Positions 33,565 to 48,963 of a stretch of DNA of 64,000 nucleotides are shown here, in pieces. The notes under the pieces were generated by a model. It was not told the DNA's origin and made no database searches. It worked only from the letters and a program-made list of their open reading frames with translations. This DNA is from Trueperaceae bacterium (GTDB taxonomy: Bacteria > Deinococcota > Deinococci > Deinococcales > Trueperaceae), in NCBI GenBank assembly GCA_965213925.1, contig OZ243927.1:2784001-2848000 (forward strand). Direction: 5' to 3'. The translations under genes were made by a program, and so were the position numbers. Position 1 is the stretch's first letter. Each line of letters begins with the position of its first letter.

Positions 33565-33930
33565 CTACAACATATCCGCCCGCCTACTCTGCGTTACGGT
33601 AGGAGAGGGCTCTTTCTCGTCTCGGTTGCGCAACAATTCTATGAGGAACACCTGTGCGACGCCAAAGCTCAGCGCGCTTATAAACCAGTTGATCCAGCGG
33701 AGCGGGTTGTCCACGTTTTGCCGCAAATTGATCGTAATGACCGCCGGACGAAAGCCCCACCGCGTGATGAAGTAAACCGCACCGAAGGCGAAGACGACGC
33801 TGAAGATACTCATGATGAGGCGCGAACCGAGCCAAGCGTCAGGGACCCACCGTTTGCCGAAGCGGTTGACGAGGAAAAAGGTGATGAAGGATATGAGTAG
33901 AAAGATAAGTGTAGTGACAAAAACGTTCAT
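33565..33930 (-). CDS. Hypothetical 3-TM membrane protein
   Basis: GAGGAGG RBS before ATG 33930; hydrophobic segments. Confidence 0.65.
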   Translation of the reverse strand: MNVFVTTLIFLLISFITFFLVNRFGKRWVPDAWLGSRLIMSIFSVVFAFGAVYFITRWGFRPAVITINLRQNVDNPLRWINWFISALSFGVAQVFLIELLRNRDEKEPSPTVTQSRRADML

Positions 33931-34107
33931 GCTGAGCACCTCCTCGATGCTATTGGACGCGAATGCGGACGTTGATAACTGAGAATACGGAGCGAACGGT
34001 AGGGTTGGGCGGCTCTCATTCTCCACCCTCCGCTTCTCCGTAGGGAACAACACTCCTACACGTTACTGCGTTCTCCATGCCTAGCGGCGACGTGATGCAG
34101 GTCAAGT

Positions 34108-36927
34108 TCATGAGTCACCCCGACTCGGCTGTAAAACCTCCGACTCCGAGGTTTCCGCGTCCGGCACCGGACGCCCGAGCCACCACACGCTGAGGCGCGT
34201 GATGATGAGCACGCCCAGCCCGAGCAGGGACGCTTTGAACCAGGCAAAGCTGTCAATAGGCGCAGAGCCGAACACGGCGTTCATACCGGGCAGGTAGATA
34301 AACGCCAGTTGCAGCGCGGCGAGCACGCCGACGCTCAAGATTACCCAGGGGTTGCGTCGCTCGGACAGGCTCAGGGGCCTAGTGGGCGCGCGGATCGCGA
34401 AGAGGTAGGCGAGCTGCGCCAAGACGATACCCGTGACAGTGAGCGTCTGTATTCGGGCGAGCGTGCGTTCCGGGGAGACACTGTCGGCTAGCGCGTCGGC
34501 CAAGCCGAGATAGCTTAGAATAAGCGTACCGACAGTGAGTAAAACGCTCATCAGGGCGATAAGGGTGAGGTTGGAGCGGCTCAAGAGGGCACTTTGGCGC
34601 GAGCCGAGCGGCGTGGGGATGGACTCGAGCGCCAGCGGCAACCCCAGCAAGAGGTTGGCGACCAGGTGAACCCAGAGCGCTTGGGTGGGCAAGAGCGGCA
34701 AGAGCGTGCCGTCTCCTAGTAAAAGGGCGTAGCCCGTGCTGACCGCCAAGATCGCGAGCAGCGCGATGTTGACGGGCAGCGCAAAGGTCAGGAGCCGCGT
34801 GACGGCGGTGCGCACCTTGCCGCCCTCTTGCAGGGCGGTCAAAAGCCCCCCGATATTGTCGTCCGCTAGCACCACGTCCGCGACCTCTTTCGCCACGGAC
34901 GTACCCGACACGCCCATCGAAACGCCCACGTCGGCTTGTTTCAGTGCGGGCGCGTCGTTGACGCCGTCCCCTGGCACCGCGACGACGTGACCGTCCGCCT
35001 GGAGCGCCTTGACAAGGTCCACCTTCTGCTCCGGCGTGACTCTAGCAAAAACGTCGTGGTCGCGAACGGCTTGCGCAAACTGTTTATCTGAAAGCGCCGC
35101 TAGTTCTTCGCCCGTGATGACCTCGTCGTCCTCTCTAAGAAGCCCCAAATCTTGCCCGGTCAGCCGCGCGGTGGCGGCGTGGTCGCCCGTGATCATCTTG
35201 ACGGCGAGCCCCGCTTTTCGGCACACGTGCAGCGTCGAGCGCGCCTCGGTGCGCACCGGGTCCACGACGCCGATAAGCCCTAAAAAGGTAAAGCCGTCCT
35301 CGACGTCGCTGGTGACGAGCCGCTCGGCAGGTTCGGGCGTACGGCGCTCCGCCAGGGCGATCACGCGCAAGCCTCGCGCCGCCCACGTTTCCGCCTCGCG
35401 GCGGATGCGCGCTACGTCGAGGTCGTGTCCGTCGCTCTGGACCACGCAGCGCGGCAGAACCTCGCCTGGGTCGCCGCGCAAGGAGATGAGCCCGTACCCG
35501 GCGGGCGTGCCGTGCGAGCTGGCGGTAAAACCGCGCCACGTCTTGAAAGGAAGCGTGTCGAGTCGCGGGTAGCTCTCGCGGAGGCGGTCCGCGTTGAGGC
35601 CGAGCTTATAGCCCGCCACGACGAGCGCCCCTTCGACGGGGTCGCCTGCAATAAACCAGCCGAGCCTATCGCGTTGGAGTTTGGCGTCGCTCGAGATCAC
35701 CCCCACCTTGAGCAAGTCTTCGCCGTTCGAGGAGAGCAGCCGGACCTGTTCGTCGTCAAAGCTGAGTAGTTGTCCTTCGGGCGCATACCCCTGACCGCTC
35801 AGGTGAAAGGGCAAGGGCGGCGTCCAGAGCGAGGTCGCGGTCATCTCGTTATGAGTGAGCGCCCCCGTCTTATTCGCCAGAATCGCCGTGACGCCGCCTA
35901 AAGTTTCCGTCGCCGCAAGGTGACGCAGCGCGACGCGGTGCGCGATCAAGCGCCAAATCCCGGCGGCGAGCGCGACGGTGACGAGAATCGGCAGACCAAC
36001 CGGCGCAGCCCCCACCGCAATCGCTGAAACGGTGAGTTTAATCTCTGCGAAGGTGAAGTCGCGCCAGACGCCGCCTAGAGCGACTAACGAGGCGAGAACG
36101 GCGATGGCGATTGTCAGCGCCCAACCGATGCGGTTAAAGGTCTTCGAGAAGGGCGGCGCGTCGTGCTTGATGCGCTGAATGAGCCCCGCTAGGTGTCCCA
36201 GTTCCGTCGCCATACCCGTCGCCACGACGATGCCCGCTGCGCCGCCGCTACTCACGTAGGTACCGCTATGGAGCATGCTGTGGCGGTCGCCTACACCGAC
36301 CTCTTCGGGTGTGGGGTCGGCGTGCTTGTCGACGGGCAGCGATTCGCCTGTCAAGGCGGACTGTTTGACGCGCAGGTTGTAGGAGCTTAAGAGGCGCAAA
36401 TCGGCGGGCACCCAAGCGTCCGCCTCTAAGGTCACGATGTCGCCCGGTACGAGGTCTTCAGCCGGAACGGAGAGCTTCTGCCCGCCGCGCAAAACCGTCG
36501 CCTCGTCCGGCACGATCTTAATGAGCGCGTCGAAGGAGCGGTTCGCCCGGTACGCCTGTACGAGCCCGATAGCGAGGTTGATGCTGACCGCGACAAGGAG
36601 CACCACGCCGTCTAGGACGAGCCCGAGCCAAAAAGCTAAGACGCTCGCCACTAAAAGAACGTAGTTGAGCGGGTTGCGAAACTGACGGCGCAAGAGGTGA
36701 GTAAAAGTCTCCCCTTCGATGCGCGTCAACGCATTTGCGCCCTCCTTATTGAGCCGCTTTTTCGCCTCTTCGCTACTTAGCCCCGCCTCACTACTATTAA
36801 GTAGCGCCAACGCTTGCCGCCCTGAGAGCGCGTGCCAGGGGTACTGGGTTTGCTTGCCTTGCGCACCTTCTCGGTTGTCCTGAGCTTGCCCTCGAGCTTG
36901 ACCTCGAGCTTTTTGGTCGTCAGACAT
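34108..36927 (-). CDS. P-type (P2A-like) cation ATPase homolog lacking the catalytic Asp
   Basis: TGES, MITGDH and GDGVNDAPALKQAD are present, but NKTGA replaces DKTGT and PVGL replaces PEGL. Confidence 0.88.
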   Translation of the reverse strand: MSDDQKARGQARGQAQDNREGAQGKQTQYPWHALSGRQALALLNSSEAGLSSEEAKKRLNKEGANALTRIEGETFTHLLRRQFRNPLNYVLLVASVLAFWLGLVLDGVVLLVAVSINLAIGLVQAYRANRSFDALIKIVPDEATVLRGGQKLSVPAEDLVPGDIVTLEADAWVPADLRLLSSYNLRVKQSALTGESLPVDKHADPTPEEVGVGDRHSMLHSGTYVSSGGAAGIVVATGMATELGHLAGLIQRIKHDAPPFSKTFNRIGWALTIAIAVLASLVALGGVWRDFTFAEIKLTVSAIAVGAAPVGLPILVTVALAAGIWRLIAHRVALRHLAATETLGGVTAILANKTGALTHNEMTATSLWTPPLPFHLSGQGYAPEGQLLSFDDEQVRLLSSNGEDLLKVGVISSDAKLQRDRLGWFIAGDPVEGALVVAGYKLGLNADRLRESYPRLDTLPFKTWRGFTASSHGTPAGYGLISLRGDPGEVLPRCVVQSDGHDLDVARIRREAETWAARGLRVIALAERRTPEPAERLVTSDVEDGFTFLGLIGVVDPVRTEARSTLHVCRKAGLAVKMITGDHAATARLTGQDLGLLREDDEVITGEELAALSDKQFAQAVRDHDVFARVTPEQKVDLVKALQADGHVVAVPGDGVNDAPALKQADVGVSMGVSGTSVAKEVADVVLADDNIGGLLTALQEGGKVRTAVTRLLTFALPVNIALLAILAVSTGYALLLGDGTLLPLLPTQALWVHLVANLLLGLPLALESIPTPLGSRQSALLSRSNLTLIALMSVLLTVGTLILSYLGLADALADSVSPERTLARIQTLTVTGIVLAQLAYLFAIRAPTRPLSLSERRNPWVILSVGVLAALQLAFIYLPGMNAVFGSAPIDSFAWFKASLLGLGVLIITRLSVWWLGRPVPDAETSESEVLQPSRGDS

Positions 36928-36995
36928 ACCGCTCCTTTCTCTTAGGCATTTTAGCCCCTCGCCGGGAGGACGCGCCGTCCACGCTAGGTGCCGCC

Positions 36996-37550
36996 CTATT
37001 CGTGGGCTTCATGACCTCCACCTTCATGACCGCCGCTATGGTGGCTCAGATAGATCGCGCCGCCCATTGCCAAGATGCCCAGGCTTAAGAGGAGCAAGTC
37101 GAGGGTGGTGTCGTAGTCGAGCCCCAACGCCTGCTGCAAAAACTTCACCACTAAAATAAGTACGATAACCCGAGCCAAGCGTCCTTTAAGCCCTTCAAAC
37201 GAGTTAATATCTAGTATACGACTTGCTACCTCGGTCCCTTCGGCGCTCCGGACGTTACCGATAAACTGCCGGTAGAGCCCGAGCGTAAAGATGAAGAGCG
37301 CCGAGGCGATGAGGTACCCGTCGATAACGCCCACCACACCGCTAATCATCTGCGCGCGAAAGTCGGTGCGCGCCTCTAAGTCGAGCGACGCGTCGACGTA
37401 ACCCGAGACGCGCAAGGTGAGGTAAAAGGCGTCCACCGTCGTAATAAAGAGCATCAGTAGCCACATGAAGAAACTCGCGATGACCGCGACGAGCGTGAGA
37501 ACGCGGCTCTGCCAGAGCGCCGCTTCGAAAACGTAACCGATAACTTTCAT
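36996..37550 (-). CDS. YqhA (UPF0114) family membrane protein
   Basis: LWQSR..IDGYLI..LFIF.LGLY..FI..L.I.S...LK.RL. Confidence 0.8.
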   Translation of the reverse strand: MKVIGYVFEAALWQSRVLTLVAVIASFFMWLLMLFITTVDAFYLTLRVSGYVDASLDLEARTDFRAQMISGVVGVIDGYLIASALFIFTLGLYRQFIGNVRSAEGTEVASRILDINSFEGLKGRLARVIVLILVVKFLQQALGLDYDTTLDLLLLSLGILAMGGAIYLSHHSGGHEGGGHEAHE

Positions 37551-38183
37551 GTACTATACCTTTTCTAACATCCATGTTTGAAAGAACATGTTGACAATTG
37601 CTGTACAGTTGGTTTTGCGCGCTCGAGCCGAAAGACGAAACGCATTGAAGGTGCAGTCGGGGCGAATAAAGTGGTGCATCCTCTCTCCTCATTGATAGTA
37701 CAAGGGTGACACTTGCGTGAGACACCTCGAGAAGACCATGACAAAACAGGTCACCAAACAGGCTTATTGTGTCACACATTCGAAGGGGGTTGTTTCGGAC
37801 GGTATAAAGTCAACTTTGAAAGGTCAGCGAAGTCCGCGCAAGACGAACGTTGACTCGGCTGAGCCGCGGGCTCTACACAAGACTACAGATTGTTTTAGAG
37901 CGTTGCAGAAGATGCCCGAAGCCTGACCTTATGGGTAGGATCGCAGCTCCTCGGCGTGGTTCCACCCGAGCGCGTCGCGGGCCACCAAAGACGAACGAAT
38001 AGGGACGCAGCAGATACAGGCGTTCAAAGGAGACATCGTGTAAAAAGTATAGCCGAGCTATCTGCTCAAGGTTGTCTTGTAAGATAGGGTAAACGGGCGT
38101 GAGGCGCGGCCAGAAGAGATATACGCTGCAGCGCTACGGTTTGGCGCGAGCCCTTCCCTTTTCGATTTGGGGTAGTCTAGGCT

Positions 38184-39086: not shown

Positions 39087-40232
39087 ATGGACTTCGCCCT
39101 CTCCGACGACCTCTTGATGATGAGGCGCGCCGTGCGCGACTTTGCTCAGAATGAGATTGCCTCGGTCGCATCGCAGCTCGACAAAAAGCCGTGCTTTCCC
39201 TGGAAGACCTTGCGGCAGATGGGCGAACTGGGGCTCTTAGGGATCACGACGCCGGAGCGCTACGGCGGCTCAGGTTTGGACACACTTTCTTACGCCGTGC
39301 TCTTAGAGGAAATCTCCGCCGCCGACGCCGCCCACGGCACCATTATGAGCGTCACGAACGGGCTGCCCCAAACGATGCTCCTCACCTACGGCACGGACGC
39401 GCAAAAAGAGCGCTATCTCCCTCGTCTCGCCTCGGGCGAATGGATAGGCTCCTTTTGCCTTTCCGAGCCGCATTCAGGCTCGGACGCCGTGGCGATGACG
39501 ACGCGGGCGAAAAAGGTCGAGGGCGGCTACGAACTCTCGGGCACGAAAGCTTGGATCACCTCGGGCGGCGAAGCGCACGTCTATCTCGTGATGGCAAAGA
39601 CCGACCCCGACGCGGGCGCAAGGGGGGTTTCGTGCTTCGTGGTCGAAAAGGGCACGCCGGGCGTGAGCTTCGGTAAGCCGGAAGAAAAGTTGGGTCAGCA
39701 CGCCGCCATCACCACGAGCGTCACCTTTGATGAATGTTTCGTCTCGGATGACGCGCTTCTAGGACCGGAGGGGCAGGGTTTCATCATCGCGATGGCGTCC
39801 CTTGACGGCGGGCGCATCGGCATCGCGGCGCAGGCGGTAGGGATTGCGCGCGCCGCCTTCGAAGCTGCCAGAGATTACGCCAATGAGCGCCAGTCGTTCG
39901 GCAAACCGATCCGGGAGTATCAGGGAATCAGCTTTAAGTTGGCGGACATGGCGACGCGCCTAGACGCCGCGAGGCTCCTCACCCACCGCGCTGCCTGGCT
40001 CAAGGATAGGGGCTTTCGCATGACCCAAGAGGCGTCGATGGCGAAGCTCTTCGCGTCCGAGGCGTCGTCCTTTATCACGCACCAGGCGGTGCAAATTTTT
40101 GGCGGGTACGGCTACTCGAAGGACTATCCGGTGGAGCGCTACTTCCGCGACGCCCGCGTTACCGAAATCTACGAAGGCACCAGCGAAGTGCAGCGCATGG
40201 TCATCGCGCGGCAGATGTATAGAGATAGATGA
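39087..40232 (+). CDS. Acyl-CoA dehydrogenase
   Basis: FCLSEP.SGSD, GTKAWIT and IYEGTSEVQR motifs. Confidence 0.95.
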   Translation: MDFALSDDLLMMRRAVRDFAQNEIASVASQLDKKPCFPWKTLRQMGELGLLGITTPERYGGSGLDTLSYAVLLEEISAADAAHGTIMSVTNGLPQTMLLTYGTDAQKERYLPRLASGEWIGSFCLSEPHSGSDAVAMTTRAKKVEGGYELSGTKAWITSGGEAHVYLVMAKTDPDAGARGVSCFVVEKGTPGVSFGKPEEKLGQHAAITTSVTFDECFVSDDALLGPEGQGFIIAMASLDGGRIGIAAQAVGIARAAFEAARDYANERQSFGKPIREYQGISFKLADMATRLDAARLLTHRAAWLKDRGFRMTQEASMAKLFASEASSFITHQAVQIFGGYGYSKDYPVERYFRDARVTEIYEGTSEVQRMVIARQMYRDR

Positions 40233-40600
40233 GACGAATTATCTACGACAAACACGGGAAGCCGAGGCTTTACGTCACCGGAGCAGGGGTCGTGTATGGG
40301 CTCGACAATCACGTCCGCGGCTTTGTCCAAAACGAACAACTCGCCGACGAGCGCGGCGCGATAAGAGGGTGGTTTGACGGTGACTTCTTGTGGGACGTGG
40401 AAGGCTACCTCGTGGGCTTCGTCAAAGGTGCCAAACCTCCGCAAAGCTTGACGTTACCCAAAACGCGACCGCTCAGGGTCAAACCGCAACCGACGCCCGC
40501 ACTTCTAGCGCCTTTTTTGCAGATGCAACCCAAACCCAAACTTCTCTTCGAGTGGTCCGAGCGGGAGCTTGAAGAGGTGTTCTCGAGTCCCGCGGTTTAA
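40229..40600 (+). CDS. Hypothetical protein, 4-fold beta-flower-like
   Basis: Repeating YD..G / G..RG(W/F) units and a Pro-rich tail. Confidence 0.6.
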   Translation: MRRIIYDKHGKPRLYVTGAGVVYGLDNHVRGFVQNEQLADERGAIRGWFDGDFLWDVEGYLVGFVKGAKPPQSLTLPKTRPLRVKPQPTPALLAPFLQMQPKPKLLFEWSERELEEVFSSPAV

Positions 40601-45777: not shown

Positions 45778-48700
45778 TCACTTAGCAACCTGCGCGTAAT
45801 GCGCGTCTAGCTCAATCCCTATATCTAAAAGCGCCACGATTCGCTGTACGATTTCACCCAGCCACTGCGCGTCCTCTAGCTCCAAAACCATATCTTTGCG
45901 GTAGCCGAGCCACTTCGAGAGGACAGGGTAGCCGCCGAGCGTATACGTCCACACCTCTTTGGGCACATTCTCGAGCCACAACGCATCACTCAGATAGAGC
46001 TTTCCCTCTTTCCAAGCAGGTTTGACTACCCTAAGTTCTTCGGGAAGGTTTTCGTTAAATCGCCCTAGTGTTTCATAAGGCGCAAGTAGCGCACTTGCGT
46101 CGCTCAGCGGGTCGAGAAGCCGCGCCACCTTTCCACCGAGTTCCGCGCCCGCCTCCAACCCCGTTTTATCCTCGGGTAGCGGGATACGCGGCCAGTCCTC
46201 CGCCAAGTATTCTGCGTGGTCCTCGCGGTAGGTGGGCGCGTGCATCACGGCGAGCGTATGGTAAAAAAGCGCCTCGGAAAGCCCAAACGCCTCTTCGGTA
46301 GGTTTGCCCGCCGCGTCCTTGACGCAGCCATAGCGCGACAGCACAGGCTCAGGTTTAGGAGGCCGTTTACAGTCCTGTTTTTCCTTAGGCAGTTTGAGCA
46401 GTTTGTTCTTGACGAGTTCGTCATAGAAGTCTGAGACGTTGGGGAGGTATTGGTAGTCGTCACTGTTGTCGAAGAGTCCAGCTTGTCCGCCCTCAATGGG
46501 ATGATAGCGAAGTTTGAGAGGTAAAGCGTCGGCATCGGGATCAATCAAGTGGAGATCAATCAAGCCTTGATCAAATAAAGGTGCATCGTAACCACGACGC
46601 ATAGTTTGAGATACGCTGATAAACTTATTGTCTTCAAATACTTGCGAAAAGAACTCTTTACGCTTTTCATTGAGCAGTTTTCCTTCTTCTTCCCAGTACA
46701 AAAAGCGTTTATCAAATGGACGATAGTGATAGTTGACGATTCGCTCTTCACGATATTGGGATTTCTCGAGCAGAAGTTGGCGATTAGCAACTGGAGTATA
46801 GCGGGCAGCCTTCTTCATTAAAACAGGATTGAGCTTATCTAATTCCTTTTGTGTAACTAACGGGTCATAATATTTCTGCATAAGCTCTTCTAACGTTTTT
46901 GCTTTGAAAGCTATAACAGCTTTATCACGGTTCGTGTTTACACCATCGAAACTTACAGGAAAAATCTCTTCTAGGTTGGTCCATGTCCAATAGGCGTCTT
47001 CTCCAACAAGCGGACGCAAGAGGTAGCGGTGTTGCCTTTCGGGTTGAAAACTTTCGCTAAAAGGTTGTGCTTGGGCAGCGAGCGCAGCCCTCTTCCCTTT
47101 GCCCGTGCCTTCTCGATATTCGCGGTAGTGAACTTTAGCGGTGTCTTTATCCGGTTTGCTGCTTACAAGATGAGCAATGGCAATGCCTACGCGAACGCCG
47201 CCCGCTGTCTCGGTTGTAAACACGCTGCCGTTATTTGCGCGGTTTGAGCGTTGCGAGCCGTGCAGGTCGTCAATATAGATGCTTGAAAAGTTCTCTACAA
47301 GATGTTGGCGCATGACGGGATGTGACAAACCCGTTAGGTACGAGCGGTTCGTGATGTACGAAACGATACCTTCACCCTGATTCTCTGCGATTTGTCTTTC
47401 TGCTAGTCGGATGAAGCGGATATAGAGGTCGTCCAGCGTTTGCTTTTTGACGCCCCAAGACTGTTGCAAACATTGTTTGTAAGGTGCAATGAGGTCAGCT
47501 TGCTCGTTTTCCGCCACGCCCGAAAAACGGTCATAAGGCGGGTTGCCGATAAAGACCAGAATTTTCTCTTGCCGCTTGACGTTGTCCGCCGCCTCTTTCT
47601 CCTTGGCAAACTGCGGCCAAATCGGGGTCACGTCCTCCTTAGCATCCTTTTTCCACCCGAGCAGGCTATTTGTGAGGTAAACGCCGACGCGCTCCCCCTC
47701 GCCAAGCGCTGTACCTGCCTCTGCGAGCAAAAGCCCGAGTTGTAAGTGGGCGATAACGAAGGGTGCGGGCAGTAGTTCAAAGCCGAAGATGCGCTCTTGA
47801 AAGGCTTTTTTGACGATGCGCCCGCGCAAGGGGTTGTTGGCAAGGCGCTCGAGCATAAACTTGCCGATTTCAACCAGGTAGGACCCCGTCCCCGTCGCAG
47901 GGTCGAGCACCACCACGCGCTCGTCCATCAGCCCTTTAGCGATGTCGAGTTCGTCTTTGAGGAGTTGGTCGGTCTTCTCCACCTGATAGCGGACGATTTC
48001 ACGCGGCGTGTACCAGACGCCTAAGTCCTTGCGGAGTTGCTTGTCGAACTTCTCCAGAAAAGGTTCGTAGAAATACTGAACGGCTTGCCCTTCGTCAAAG
48101 GCTTTGAGAAACGCATCGGGGTCAACGCGCTTGAGAGCGTCTACAGCCCAGTCAATCGGGGTTTTAAGCTCGAGGTTTTTAAGTCTTCTCGGTTGCGTCA
48201 CCTCTTCGAAAAGGTCAACGACGAGCGGAACCTTGAGGTATTCGGACGCTTCGTAGAGCGTTAGCTTGTCCCCTTTACCTTGCTTAGCCGCTTCTACCCA
48301 AGCACTGAAGAGCCCGTAAAAGAGCGCTTGAACGACGCCGCTTCTAAAGAACTTTTCCCCCGCCTTGTCCTTAATCCTGATACCGAGTGCCTCCTCCATC
48401 GCTTTACGCAGTGGGGCGAGACTATCCTTCTCGGCAGCCTCGAGGCGATTGAGGGCGTCCTTGGCGTATTCAGAGAGGCGTTCGGCGAGCGCTTCAGGCT
48501 TGGTGATAGGCGTGCGCAGCTTGGTCCAGAGGTTGAGCAACTCGAGCAGCTTGGTCTCATGAGTGCTGACTACCTGGTCAAGCGGCGCATTGAGAAAGTC
48601 GTTCTGCGCAATTTCGTAGCGCTGCACCTCTTGGCTTTGATCAATAATCCAAAATTCGTAGAAGTTAGTGAGCAGCGTAGGCGCTTCTTTTGAGTAGCGT

Positions 48701-48963
48701 TGTGCTTGTTCTAAACCGTGTTTATTTTTGCTGAGCGGTGTTTTGAGCGCCTCGGCCTCGACGTATCCTTCAAAGACGTTGCTGACGCTTATGCCAATAT
48801 CAGGTAGACCTTGATGGTTACCTTTCGGCCAAGAGGTAACGTCAACCTCTTCAAGGGCAGCCTGAAGGAAATTCTTCAGCTCTGGAACGTAGCTGTTTTC
48901 GGGCGTTCCGGTATCGTTGCTGTAAATTTTTCTAACGGCGCTCAGGTAAGTTTTGAAGGACAC
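45778..48963 (-). CDS. Type ISP/IIG-like restriction-modification protein (N6-adenine MTase plus C-terminal specificity domain, no helicase)
   Basis: FYEPFL..GVWYTP, VLDPATGTGSYL, GNPPY, YRPFD and W.YTLGGYPVL.KWL.YR motifs. Confidence 0.85.
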   Translation of the reverse strand: MSFKTYLSAVRKIYSNDTGTPENSYVPELKNFLQAALEEVDVTSWPKGNHQGLPDIGISVSNVFEGYVEAEALKTPLSKNKHGLEQAQRYSKEAPTLLTNFYEFWIIDQSQEVQRYEIAQNDFLNAPLDQVVSTHETKLLELLNLWTKLRTPITKPEALAERLSEYAKDALNRLEAAEKDSLAPLRKAMEEALGIRIKDKAGEKFFRSGVVQALFYGLFSAWVEAAKQGKGDKLTLYEASEYLKVPLVVDLFEEVTQPRRLKNLELKTPIDWAVDALKRVDPDAFLKAFDEGQAVQYFYEPFLEKFDKQLRKDLGVWYTPREIVRYQVEKTDQLLKDELDIAKGLMDERVVVLDPATGTGSYLVEIGKFMLERLANNPLRGRIVKKAFQERIFGFELLPAPFVIAHLQLGLLLAEAGTALGEGERVGVYLTNSLLGWKKDAKEDVTPIWPQFAKEKEAADNVKRQEKILVFIGNPPYDRFSGVAENEQADLIAPYKQCLQQSWGVKKQTLDDLYIRFIRLAERQIAENQGEGIVSYITNRSYLTGLSHPVMRQHLVENFSSIYIDDLHGSQRSNRANNGSVFTTETAGGVRVGIAIAHLVSSKPDKDTAKVHYREYREGTGKGKRAALAAQAQPFSESFQPERQHRYLLRPLVGEDAYWTWTNLEEIFPVSFDGVNTNRDKAVIAFKAKTLEELMQKYYDPLVTQKELDKLNPVLMKKAARYTPVANRQLLLEKSQYREERIVNYHYRPFDKRFLYWEEEGKLLNEKRKEFFSQVFEDNKFISVSQTMRRGYDAPLFDQGLIDLHLIDPDADALPLKLRYHPIEGGQAGLFDNSDDYQYLPNVSDFYDELVKNKLLKLPKEKQDCKRPPKPEPVLSRYGCVKDAAGKPTEEAFGLSEALFYHTLAVMHAPTYREDHAEYLAEDWPRIPLPEDKTGLEAGAELGGKVARLLDPLSDASALLAPYETLGRFNENLPEELRVVKPAWKEGKLYLSDALWLENVPKEVWTYTLGGYPVLSKWLGYRKDMVLELEDAQWLGEIVQRIVALLDIGIELDAHYAQVAK

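Follow-up and report, generated by a model that had tools for sequence, protein, structure and literature searches.

P-type ATPases are defined by the aspartate of their DKTGT motif, and a Glu in membrane segment M4 and an Asn in M6 serve as ion ligands in the P-type pumps. Described members such as the Listeria Ca2+-ATPase LMCA1 (6zhf/9euq), human SPCA1 (8iww) and SERCA1a combine a ten-helix M domain with A, P and N domains. Here we analyze a gene within a 64,000-nucleotide stretch of a Trueperaceae bacterium genome (Deinococcota; GenBank assembly GCA_965213925.1, contig OZ243927.1, positions 2,784,001 to 2,848,000, hereafter the window), which encodes a homologue of these pumps that we term the pseudo-pump. 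It shares with LMCA1, SPCA1 and SERCA1a the domain architecture, the TGES, TGD and GDGVND motifs and the P-domain Lys, whereas the phosphorylated Asp is exchanged for Asn, and the M4 Glu, the M6 Asn and Asp, and the Lys of the KGAPE motif are replaced. From sequence comparisons, we propose with a probability of roughly 60% that this P2-type paralogue is specific to its lineage, no longer runs the transport cycle, is maintained by purifying selection, and would act as an MgATP-binding sensor or regulator.

No phosphoenzyme forms in any P-type pump tested once the Asp has been replaced, as in SERCA D351N, Na,K-ATPase D369N and H,K-ATPase D386N, according to the accessible part of one study (PMC13322241). 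These laboratory or disease alleles of active pumps carry the same single substitution, which eliminates transport as well (PMC13322241), whereas in the pseudo-pump the Asn occurs naturally, is shared by a whole clade and goes together with a lost ion site. From such published mutant data we expect the pseudo-pump to be catalytically dead. ERMA/TMEM94, a divergent eukaryotic P-type fold with DKQGI and GSSANL motifs and no TGES, shows the opposite pattern in the accessible text of the same study: ERMA keeps and needs its Asp (D427N is inactive), TGES and GDGVND have been lost, and its nucleotide pocket is occluded (PMC13322241). The two lineages are unrelated, and both present a P-type architecture with non-canonical catalytic motifs. 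In alveolate fusions of a P4-ATPase to a guanylate cyclase (P4GC), the DKTGT Asp is altered in some lineages and the flippase module is retained, as given in the available portion of a second report (PMC13466520). Those proteins are eukaryotic and of the P4 type, with the fused cyclase giving the output, whereas the pseudo-pump is bacterial, of the P2 type and stand-alone, with no fused effector. These two eukaryotic cases are the nearest natural parallels that we found in print. The accessible text of a 2023 review of the P-type family (PMC10654040), searched by term, makes no mention of 'inactive' or 'non-catalytic' forms. The literature searched, which leaves most subscription journals outside, yielded no description of a bacterial P-type homologue in which the Asp is naturally Asn, and within that same scope natural homologues without the DKTGT Asp are described only for eukaryotic fusion proteins.

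The pseudo-pump gene occupies positions 34108-36927 on the minus strand as an uninterrupted open reading frame (ORF) of 939 codons, preceded by a Shine-Dalgarno-like AAGGAG five bases upstream of the ATG (36932-36937, minus strand). The frames of the orthologues in the two other genomes of the genus are also open (932 residues in G001 and 935 in G002). Five Pfam domains score above their cut-offs, Cation_ATPase_N, E1-E2_ATPase, Cation_ATPase, Hydrolase and Cation_ATPase_C, and the protein reaches 233.7 bits against TIGR01494, 'HAD-IC family P-type ATPase', for which the cut-off is 62.3. All ten hydrophobic segments are present. By family profiles the protein therefore possesses the A, P and N domains and the M domain of the P-type superfamily. 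It falls short of the equivalog cut-offs for P2A Ca2+-ATPases, scoring 375 against 703 for TIGR01116 and 457 against 798 for TIGR01522, to which its canonical relatives score 640-670.

The best solved relative is LMCA1 (6zhf, E 4e-114, aligned over residues 36-909), and this alignment places the altered motifs opposite their functional counterparts. At the phosphorylation loop ANKTGALT lies opposite TDKTGTLT, with the AAT codon of Asn352 (35872-35874, minus strand, as for all of the following) at the position of the phosphorylated Asp. The protein thus reads NKTGA and lacks the phosphorylatable residue by which the enzymes of this family are recognized. In M4, APVGL lies opposite IPEAL, and Val310 within the PVGL motif (residues 309-312, 35992-36003) replaces the ion-binding Glu of PEGL. 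In the N domain LRGDPG is aligned to TKGGPD, and Arg484 of RGDPG (residues 484-488, 35464-35478) replaces the Lys of KGAPE. In M6, WVHLVAN (residues 752-758, 34654-34674) lies opposite FINLVND, with His754 in place of an Asn that is invariant in canonical pumps. Thus, neither the M4 Glu nor the M6 Asn and Asp ligands expected of a P2A Ca2+-ATPase are found. At the cytoplasmic start of M5, EEGRR has become QEGGK, and Gly703 (34819-34821) replaces a canonical-invariant Arg. The P domain retains TGD (residues 580-582, 35182-35190) and GDGVND, the Mg2+ and phosphate site (residues 653-658, 34954-34971), with PGDGVND opposite TGDGVND in LMCA1. The dephosphorylation loop TGES of the A domain (residues 193-196, 36340-36351) is retained in all clade sequences. 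The intact frame, the four altered motifs and the three retained ones had all been picked out by a sequence-only reading of this DNA, and we find each of them in place.

We compared the columns of 240 canonical homologues with those of the 11 full-length sequences of the pseudo-pump clade described below. The canonical homologues were picked by length and the presence of DKTGT, so that their conservation figures for DKTGT are circular. Among the 163 columns at least 90% conserved in the canonical set, 109 are kept and 21 replaced across all 11 clade sequences, and the other 33 are mixed. The columns replaced throughout comprise Asp352 (Asn) and Thr356 (Ala/Ser), the first and fifth residues of DKTGT; the M4 Glu310, present in 99% of canonical homologues and Val in ten and Leu in one of the clade sequences; the M6 Asn754 (His); the KGAPE Lys484, present in 98% of canonical homologues and Arg in the whole clade; and, at the cytoplasmic start of M5, Arg703 (Gly/Gln) and Asn708 (Ala/Thr), where LMCA1 also has Arg and Asn. 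Residues kept in 11/11 include TGES, Lys353, Thr354, Gly355 and Glu341, the N-domain residues Glu432, Phe461 and Arg521, and the P-domain residues Thr580, Gly581, Asp582, Lys635, Asp654, Asn657 and Asp658, so that the TGD, the conserved Lys and the GDGVND Mg2+ site of the P domain are complete. By motif context, we take the retained residues to be those that contact adenine, phosphates and Mg2+ in SERCA, with Phe461, Glu432 and Arg521 assigned to the nucleotide pocket and Lys353, Thr354, Thr580-Asp582, Lys635, Asp654, Asn657 and Asp658 to the phosphate and Mg2+ site. The Thr preceding GDGVND is Pro in 10/11.

The nearest canonical relatives are uncharacterized 'cation-translocating / HAD-IC family P-type ATPases' from Myxococcota, Alphaproteobacteria and other groups (P0006-P0016, P0403-P0409), with 41-45% identity over 94-97% of the length. 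Unlike the clade, they keep DKTGT, PEGLP, WINL and EEGRR, and LKGAPE is found in 6/7 of one set, with P0407 and P0409 differing or unmatched by the pattern. They share the WxxLVA of M6 with the pseudo-pump and read WINLVA[AT]V, without the Thr and Asp of NLVTD. The M6 motif had been contrasted earlier with WxNLVTD; this holds for the His in place of Asn, which is specific to the clade, but not for the Thr and Asp, which are already absent from the nearest canonical relatives. Thus, only N754H is new to the clade in M6.

Protein searches recovered the clade as four clusters at 90% identity, with 13 gene copies. Identity to the window protein is 88-92% for five copies, including its own, 78-81% for five, 76-77% for two, and 51% for P0005, a lone metagenomic sequence on a single 4.9-kb contig; with P0005 set aside, the clade was found in one Trueperaceae genus only. 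NKTG[A/S] is present in 13/13 copies, and the Asp is kept in 265/265 non-clade homologues collected by the first two protein searches, a split that we do not ascribe to chance. The D-to-N and E-to-V/L exchanges are therefore conserved among orthologues down to 51% identity, as the sequence-only reading would have it. The contigs of two sequencing runs also match the window over 35728-35953 with no differences. Both runs are of one sample, which is probably the source of the assembly, so this agreement is a weak and non-independent check and the orthologues are the stronger one. The gene was found in these two runs only, and in no RNA run.

The clade is narrowly distributed. An orthologue was found in 2/40 related genomes, both from the same genus as the window (92% and 76% identity), and only 3/364 Deinococcota genomes, from one Trueperaceae genus, hold a match of more than 50% to P0005. 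The next best Deinococcota matches to P0005 are at 39-44%, and the three inspected all read DKTGT and PEGL. A profile search of 1.84 billion cluster representatives returned P0005 as the one clade representative (1605 bits, with the next match at 766 bits), a search with P0005 as the query gave no further clade member, and a metagenome locus scan with generic peptides gave only canonical relatives of 35-44% identity. The window genome encodes no other P2-type ATPase, and its only canonical pump is of the P1B type, with CPC and DKTGT.

A quick LG+G4 tree was built from 33 sequences: 4 canonical pumps of Trueperaceae, 6 clade copies out of 13, and 23 non-clade homologues out of 265. The clade sequences fall on one branch (Shimodaira-Hasegawa-like approximate likelihood-ratio test support of 100), whose stem measures 0.71 substitutions per site. 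This branch arises within canonical sequences (support 99), among the nearest relatives described above, and the other pumps of Trueperaceae are not its sister group, although long-branch artefacts are possible in a tree of this kind. On this phylogeny, the clade is of single origin inside the canonical DKTGT pumps. The gene sits among ordinary chromosomal genes, and recent horizontal transfer, considered from composition, was unsupported, with a G+C fraction at third codon positions of 0.77 against 0.64-0.80 in the neighbours.

Selection on the gene was estimated as the ratio of nonsynonymous to synonymous substitutions (dN/dS, or omega) by the Nei-Gojobori method (NG86). The three orthologue pairs of the genus gave 0.087, 0.194 and 0.205 (dS 0.57-0.87), and nine neighbouring genes gave 0.03-0.17. 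The benchmark consisted of six canonical pumps with DKTGT, drawn from two further Trueperaceae genera and taken as open frames untrimmed to start codons, for which 15 pairs gave 0.165-0.364 (dS 0.23-0.80). The omega of the pseudo-pump, 0.09-0.21, against 0.17-0.36 in canonical pumps of the same family, indicates purifying selection without relaxation. By domain, omega is at most 0.29 within the genus and falls to 0.00-0.02 in the NKTGA loop and 0.01-0.13 in M5-M6. Neutral simulations at three rates left the frame open in 0/500 runs per rate; at the two rates corresponding to observed dS, the mean number of stops was 25-32. The protein is thus a homologue of an enzyme family that lacks the essential catalytic residue and is under purifying selection, the combination that marks a pseudoenzyme. 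The orthologues and dN/dS together support the suggestion, made from the window alone, that coordinated substitutions in an intact frame reflect a maintained dead homologue and not error or decay.

At matched overall divergence (53%), the pair of the window protein (P0001) and P0005 was set against 400 of 2,740 canonical pairs by domain. The N domain (61% versus 41 +/- 3%) and the A domain (66% versus 55 +/- 4%) are more conserved in the pseudo-pump pair, whereas M3-M4 (36% versus 55%), the phosphorylation loop (63% versus 84%) and M5-M6 (48% versus 61%) are less conserved.

We looked for Asn variants elsewhere by scanning one genome per species, across 185,579 species, for the pattern NKTGxLTxxEMT. 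Seven stretches were found, one of which is the clade and six of which (L098-L101, L103, L104) are sporadic and in unrelated genomes. Three of the sporadic variants lie in truncated frames of 62-528 residues and three in long frames that keep PEGL. L099 and L103, which are 58% identical and both read NKTGT, were considered as a second conserved Asn lineage, and this was rejected since the 119 closest relatives of L103 (77-82% identity) all carry DKTGT. Asn variants thus do arise in isolation, but as singletons, in contrast to the clade. L104, from a Desulfoscipio metagenome-assembled genome (929 residues), is without exact TGES and GDGxND motifs. Two representatives from the profile search are P2-like and keep the Asp with degenerate catalytic motifs, P0171 with DKSHT, MGYS for TGES and GGGVND, and P0227 with DTTGT, TGQL for TGES and GNKVND, showing that other kinds of degenerate pump homologue exist.

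The pseudo-pump gene lies between two genes for membrane proteins on the same strand. Upstream, a UPF0114 (YqhA-family) gene of 184 codons (36996-37550, minus strand) ends 68 nucleotides before the ATPase start, a gap of 67 nucleotides in G001 and about 10 in G002. Downstream, and beginning after 177 nucleotides, is a gene for a predicted three-helix membrane protein of 121 residues (33565-33930, minus strand), with GAGGAGG upstream of its ATG; the queries for this protein used 33565-33933, one codon upstream of the ATG. It matched no Pfam family, and a protein atlas gave nothing for it, the best score being 0.87 with no family attached. The order of the three genes is kept in 3/3 genomes of the genus, both neighbours are under purifying selection, and the ATPase is probably co-transcribed with the UPF0114 gene.

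The evidence on residues sets the terms for a mechanism. Without the Asp carboxylate no aspartyl-phosphate can form, and hence neither E1P and E2P states nor active transport are expected, while the loss of the M4 and M6 ligands removes the canonical cation site. Since the gene is conserved and shows no decay, its pump fold may now serve a purpose other than pumping, and we consider it very probable from the comparisons above that the protein is dead for pumping yet functional. Selection has preserved TGES and the residues for nucleotide, Mg and phosphate, and we therefore take binding of MgATP without turnover to be the activity most likely to survive. Phosphorylation-site Asn mutants reportedly bind ATP more tightly, in work attributed to McIntosh et al. 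1999 and Pedersen et al. 1996. We envisage that MgATP would bind and the cytoplasmic headpiece would close without turnover, and that the pseudo-pump would act as a membrane-anchored, nucleotide-dependent sensor or regulator, possibly with UPF0114. Judged on its own, the persistence of nucleotide binding is an even bet, and a partnership with, or action on, UPF0114 or the small membrane protein is doubtful. A more specific version is equally speculative: an ATP-sensing membrane device in which MgATP is held tightly and unhydrolysed at Asn352, closure of the headpiece reports the energy charge, and the signal passes to the membrane domain or to UPF0114.

Several observations weigh against this proposal. 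The N-domain omega is among the highest within the genus (0.14-0.29), the deep conservation of the N domain depends on the single lineage P0005, and the KGAPE Lys-to-Arg and the Thr-to-Pro before GDGVND could weaken ATP binding. The partners are also found apart. Outside the genus, the closest relative of the UPF0114 protein (51%, in G020) and the small protein's homologues (34-41%; G006, G009, G019) are encoded in unrelated contexts, in genomes that yielded no pseudo-pump, and a UPF0114 or small-protein neighbour occurs in 0/95 other ATPase loci within the flanks examined. The clade is tiny, with its few 90% clusters, and 2/13 of its copies, both of the 81% group, are broken in metagenome assemblies, P0279/P0280 by a split and P0281 by a frameshift close to residue 826; either misassembly or genuine decay in certain strains could account for these interruptions.

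These interruptions, and the sporadic single-genome NKTG variants, half of them in truncated frames, are what would be expected of a recently inactivated gene on its way to decay. We regard this as very improbable, given an Asn kept across 51-92% identity, an omega no higher than in active pumps, a frame that never stayed open under neutral simulation, and the contrast with L103, whose close relatives have Asp throughout. A sequencing or assembly error at the AAT codon would need only one base, GAT to AAT, and can be practically dismissed, since the Asn recurs in thirteen copies from different assemblies, each with more than 20 further shared substitutions; the contigs of the two runs agree, though probably from the source sample. 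On these comparisons, the gene is neither a sequencing error nor a decaying pseudogene.

Two functional alternatives carry more weight. The protein might be a structural membrane scaffold or subunit in which the nucleotide site is irrelevant and the headpiece offers a protein-binding surface to UPF0114, the small membrane protein or an unlinked partner. Synteny at the genus level, the short intergenic gaps and the new clade-specific aromatics W325 and W464 suit this idea, and the deep conservation of the N and A domains is as compatible with a surface for protein binding as with a ligand site. A pure scaffold would have no need of the Mg-, phosphate- and adenine-contacting residues and TGES, all kept in 11/11, and the neighbours are found elsewhere without the pseudo-pump, so that we hold a scaffold to be unlikely. 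Less likely again is non-canonical transport, by a passive or ATP-gated path through the M domain that uses His754, or of a hydrophobic substrate. The P4 flippases have PISL at the PEGL position, and the hydrophobic Val/Leu310 of the pseudo-pump recalls them; His754 is invariant in the clade, the hydrophobic segments are all kept, and M5-M6 is strongly constrained within the genus. Yet the canonical site is left without any carboxylate or Asn ligand, the Arg at the start of M5 is lost, and in the deep comparison active pumps show higher conservation of M3-M4 and M5-M6. Asp-independent transport is known for no P-type protein, according to the accessible part of the study cited above (PMC13322241). 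The sequence-only reading had offered a scaffold, nucleotide sensor, regulator or passive channel as candidate roles; the residue pattern as a whole favours nucleotide binding over a cation channel.

A stand-alone bacterial homologue lacking both nucleophile and ion site, and constrained at least as strongly as active pumps, would show that the scaffold can serve a non-transport function. The label 'cation-translocating ATPase' that annotation will give the pseudo-pump is probably wrong. The protein would also offer structural biology a natural unphosphorylatable protein, expected in the pre-phosphorylation nucleotide-bound form. Cooperation with UPF0114, if it occurs, would provide a first handle on that uncharacterized family, and the ATP-sensing device, if true, would be the bacterial equivalent of a pseudokinase, with an ion pump as its starting point.

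Upstream of UPF0114 we noted an ORF of 41 codons (37554-37679, minus strand) with a strong Shine-Dalgarno-like site, GAGGAGAGAGG, whose TAG stop falls three bases short of the UPF0114 start codon. In G001 and G002, too, an ORF preceded by a Shine-Dalgarno-like site stops at this point, and the peptides are barely alike. This may be a leader ORF coupled to UPF0114 translation. Rfam gave no match, to a riboswitch or otherwise, around the operon at E values up to 1, nor in the whole window at the gathering score, and a tRNA search found none. Promoter-like sites (3, against 1.2 +/- 1.2 in shuffles) and terminator-like sites (5, against 5.6 +/- 2.4) are not clearly above shuffled sequence.

Homologues of the small membrane protein with 27-41% identity occur in three other Trueperaceae genomes in differing contexts, including a tandem pair in G009 (L106, 5910-6889). 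Elsewhere in the window, an ORF of 1061 codons (45778-48963, minus strand) combines Type ISP C-terminal specificity, N6-methylase and Eco57I domains and probably encodes a Type ISP/IIG restriction-modification enzyme. On the plus strand, 40229-40600 encodes a '4-fold beta flower' (PF21784) protein between two acyl-CoA dehydrogenase genes, an arrangement that is conserved in G002.

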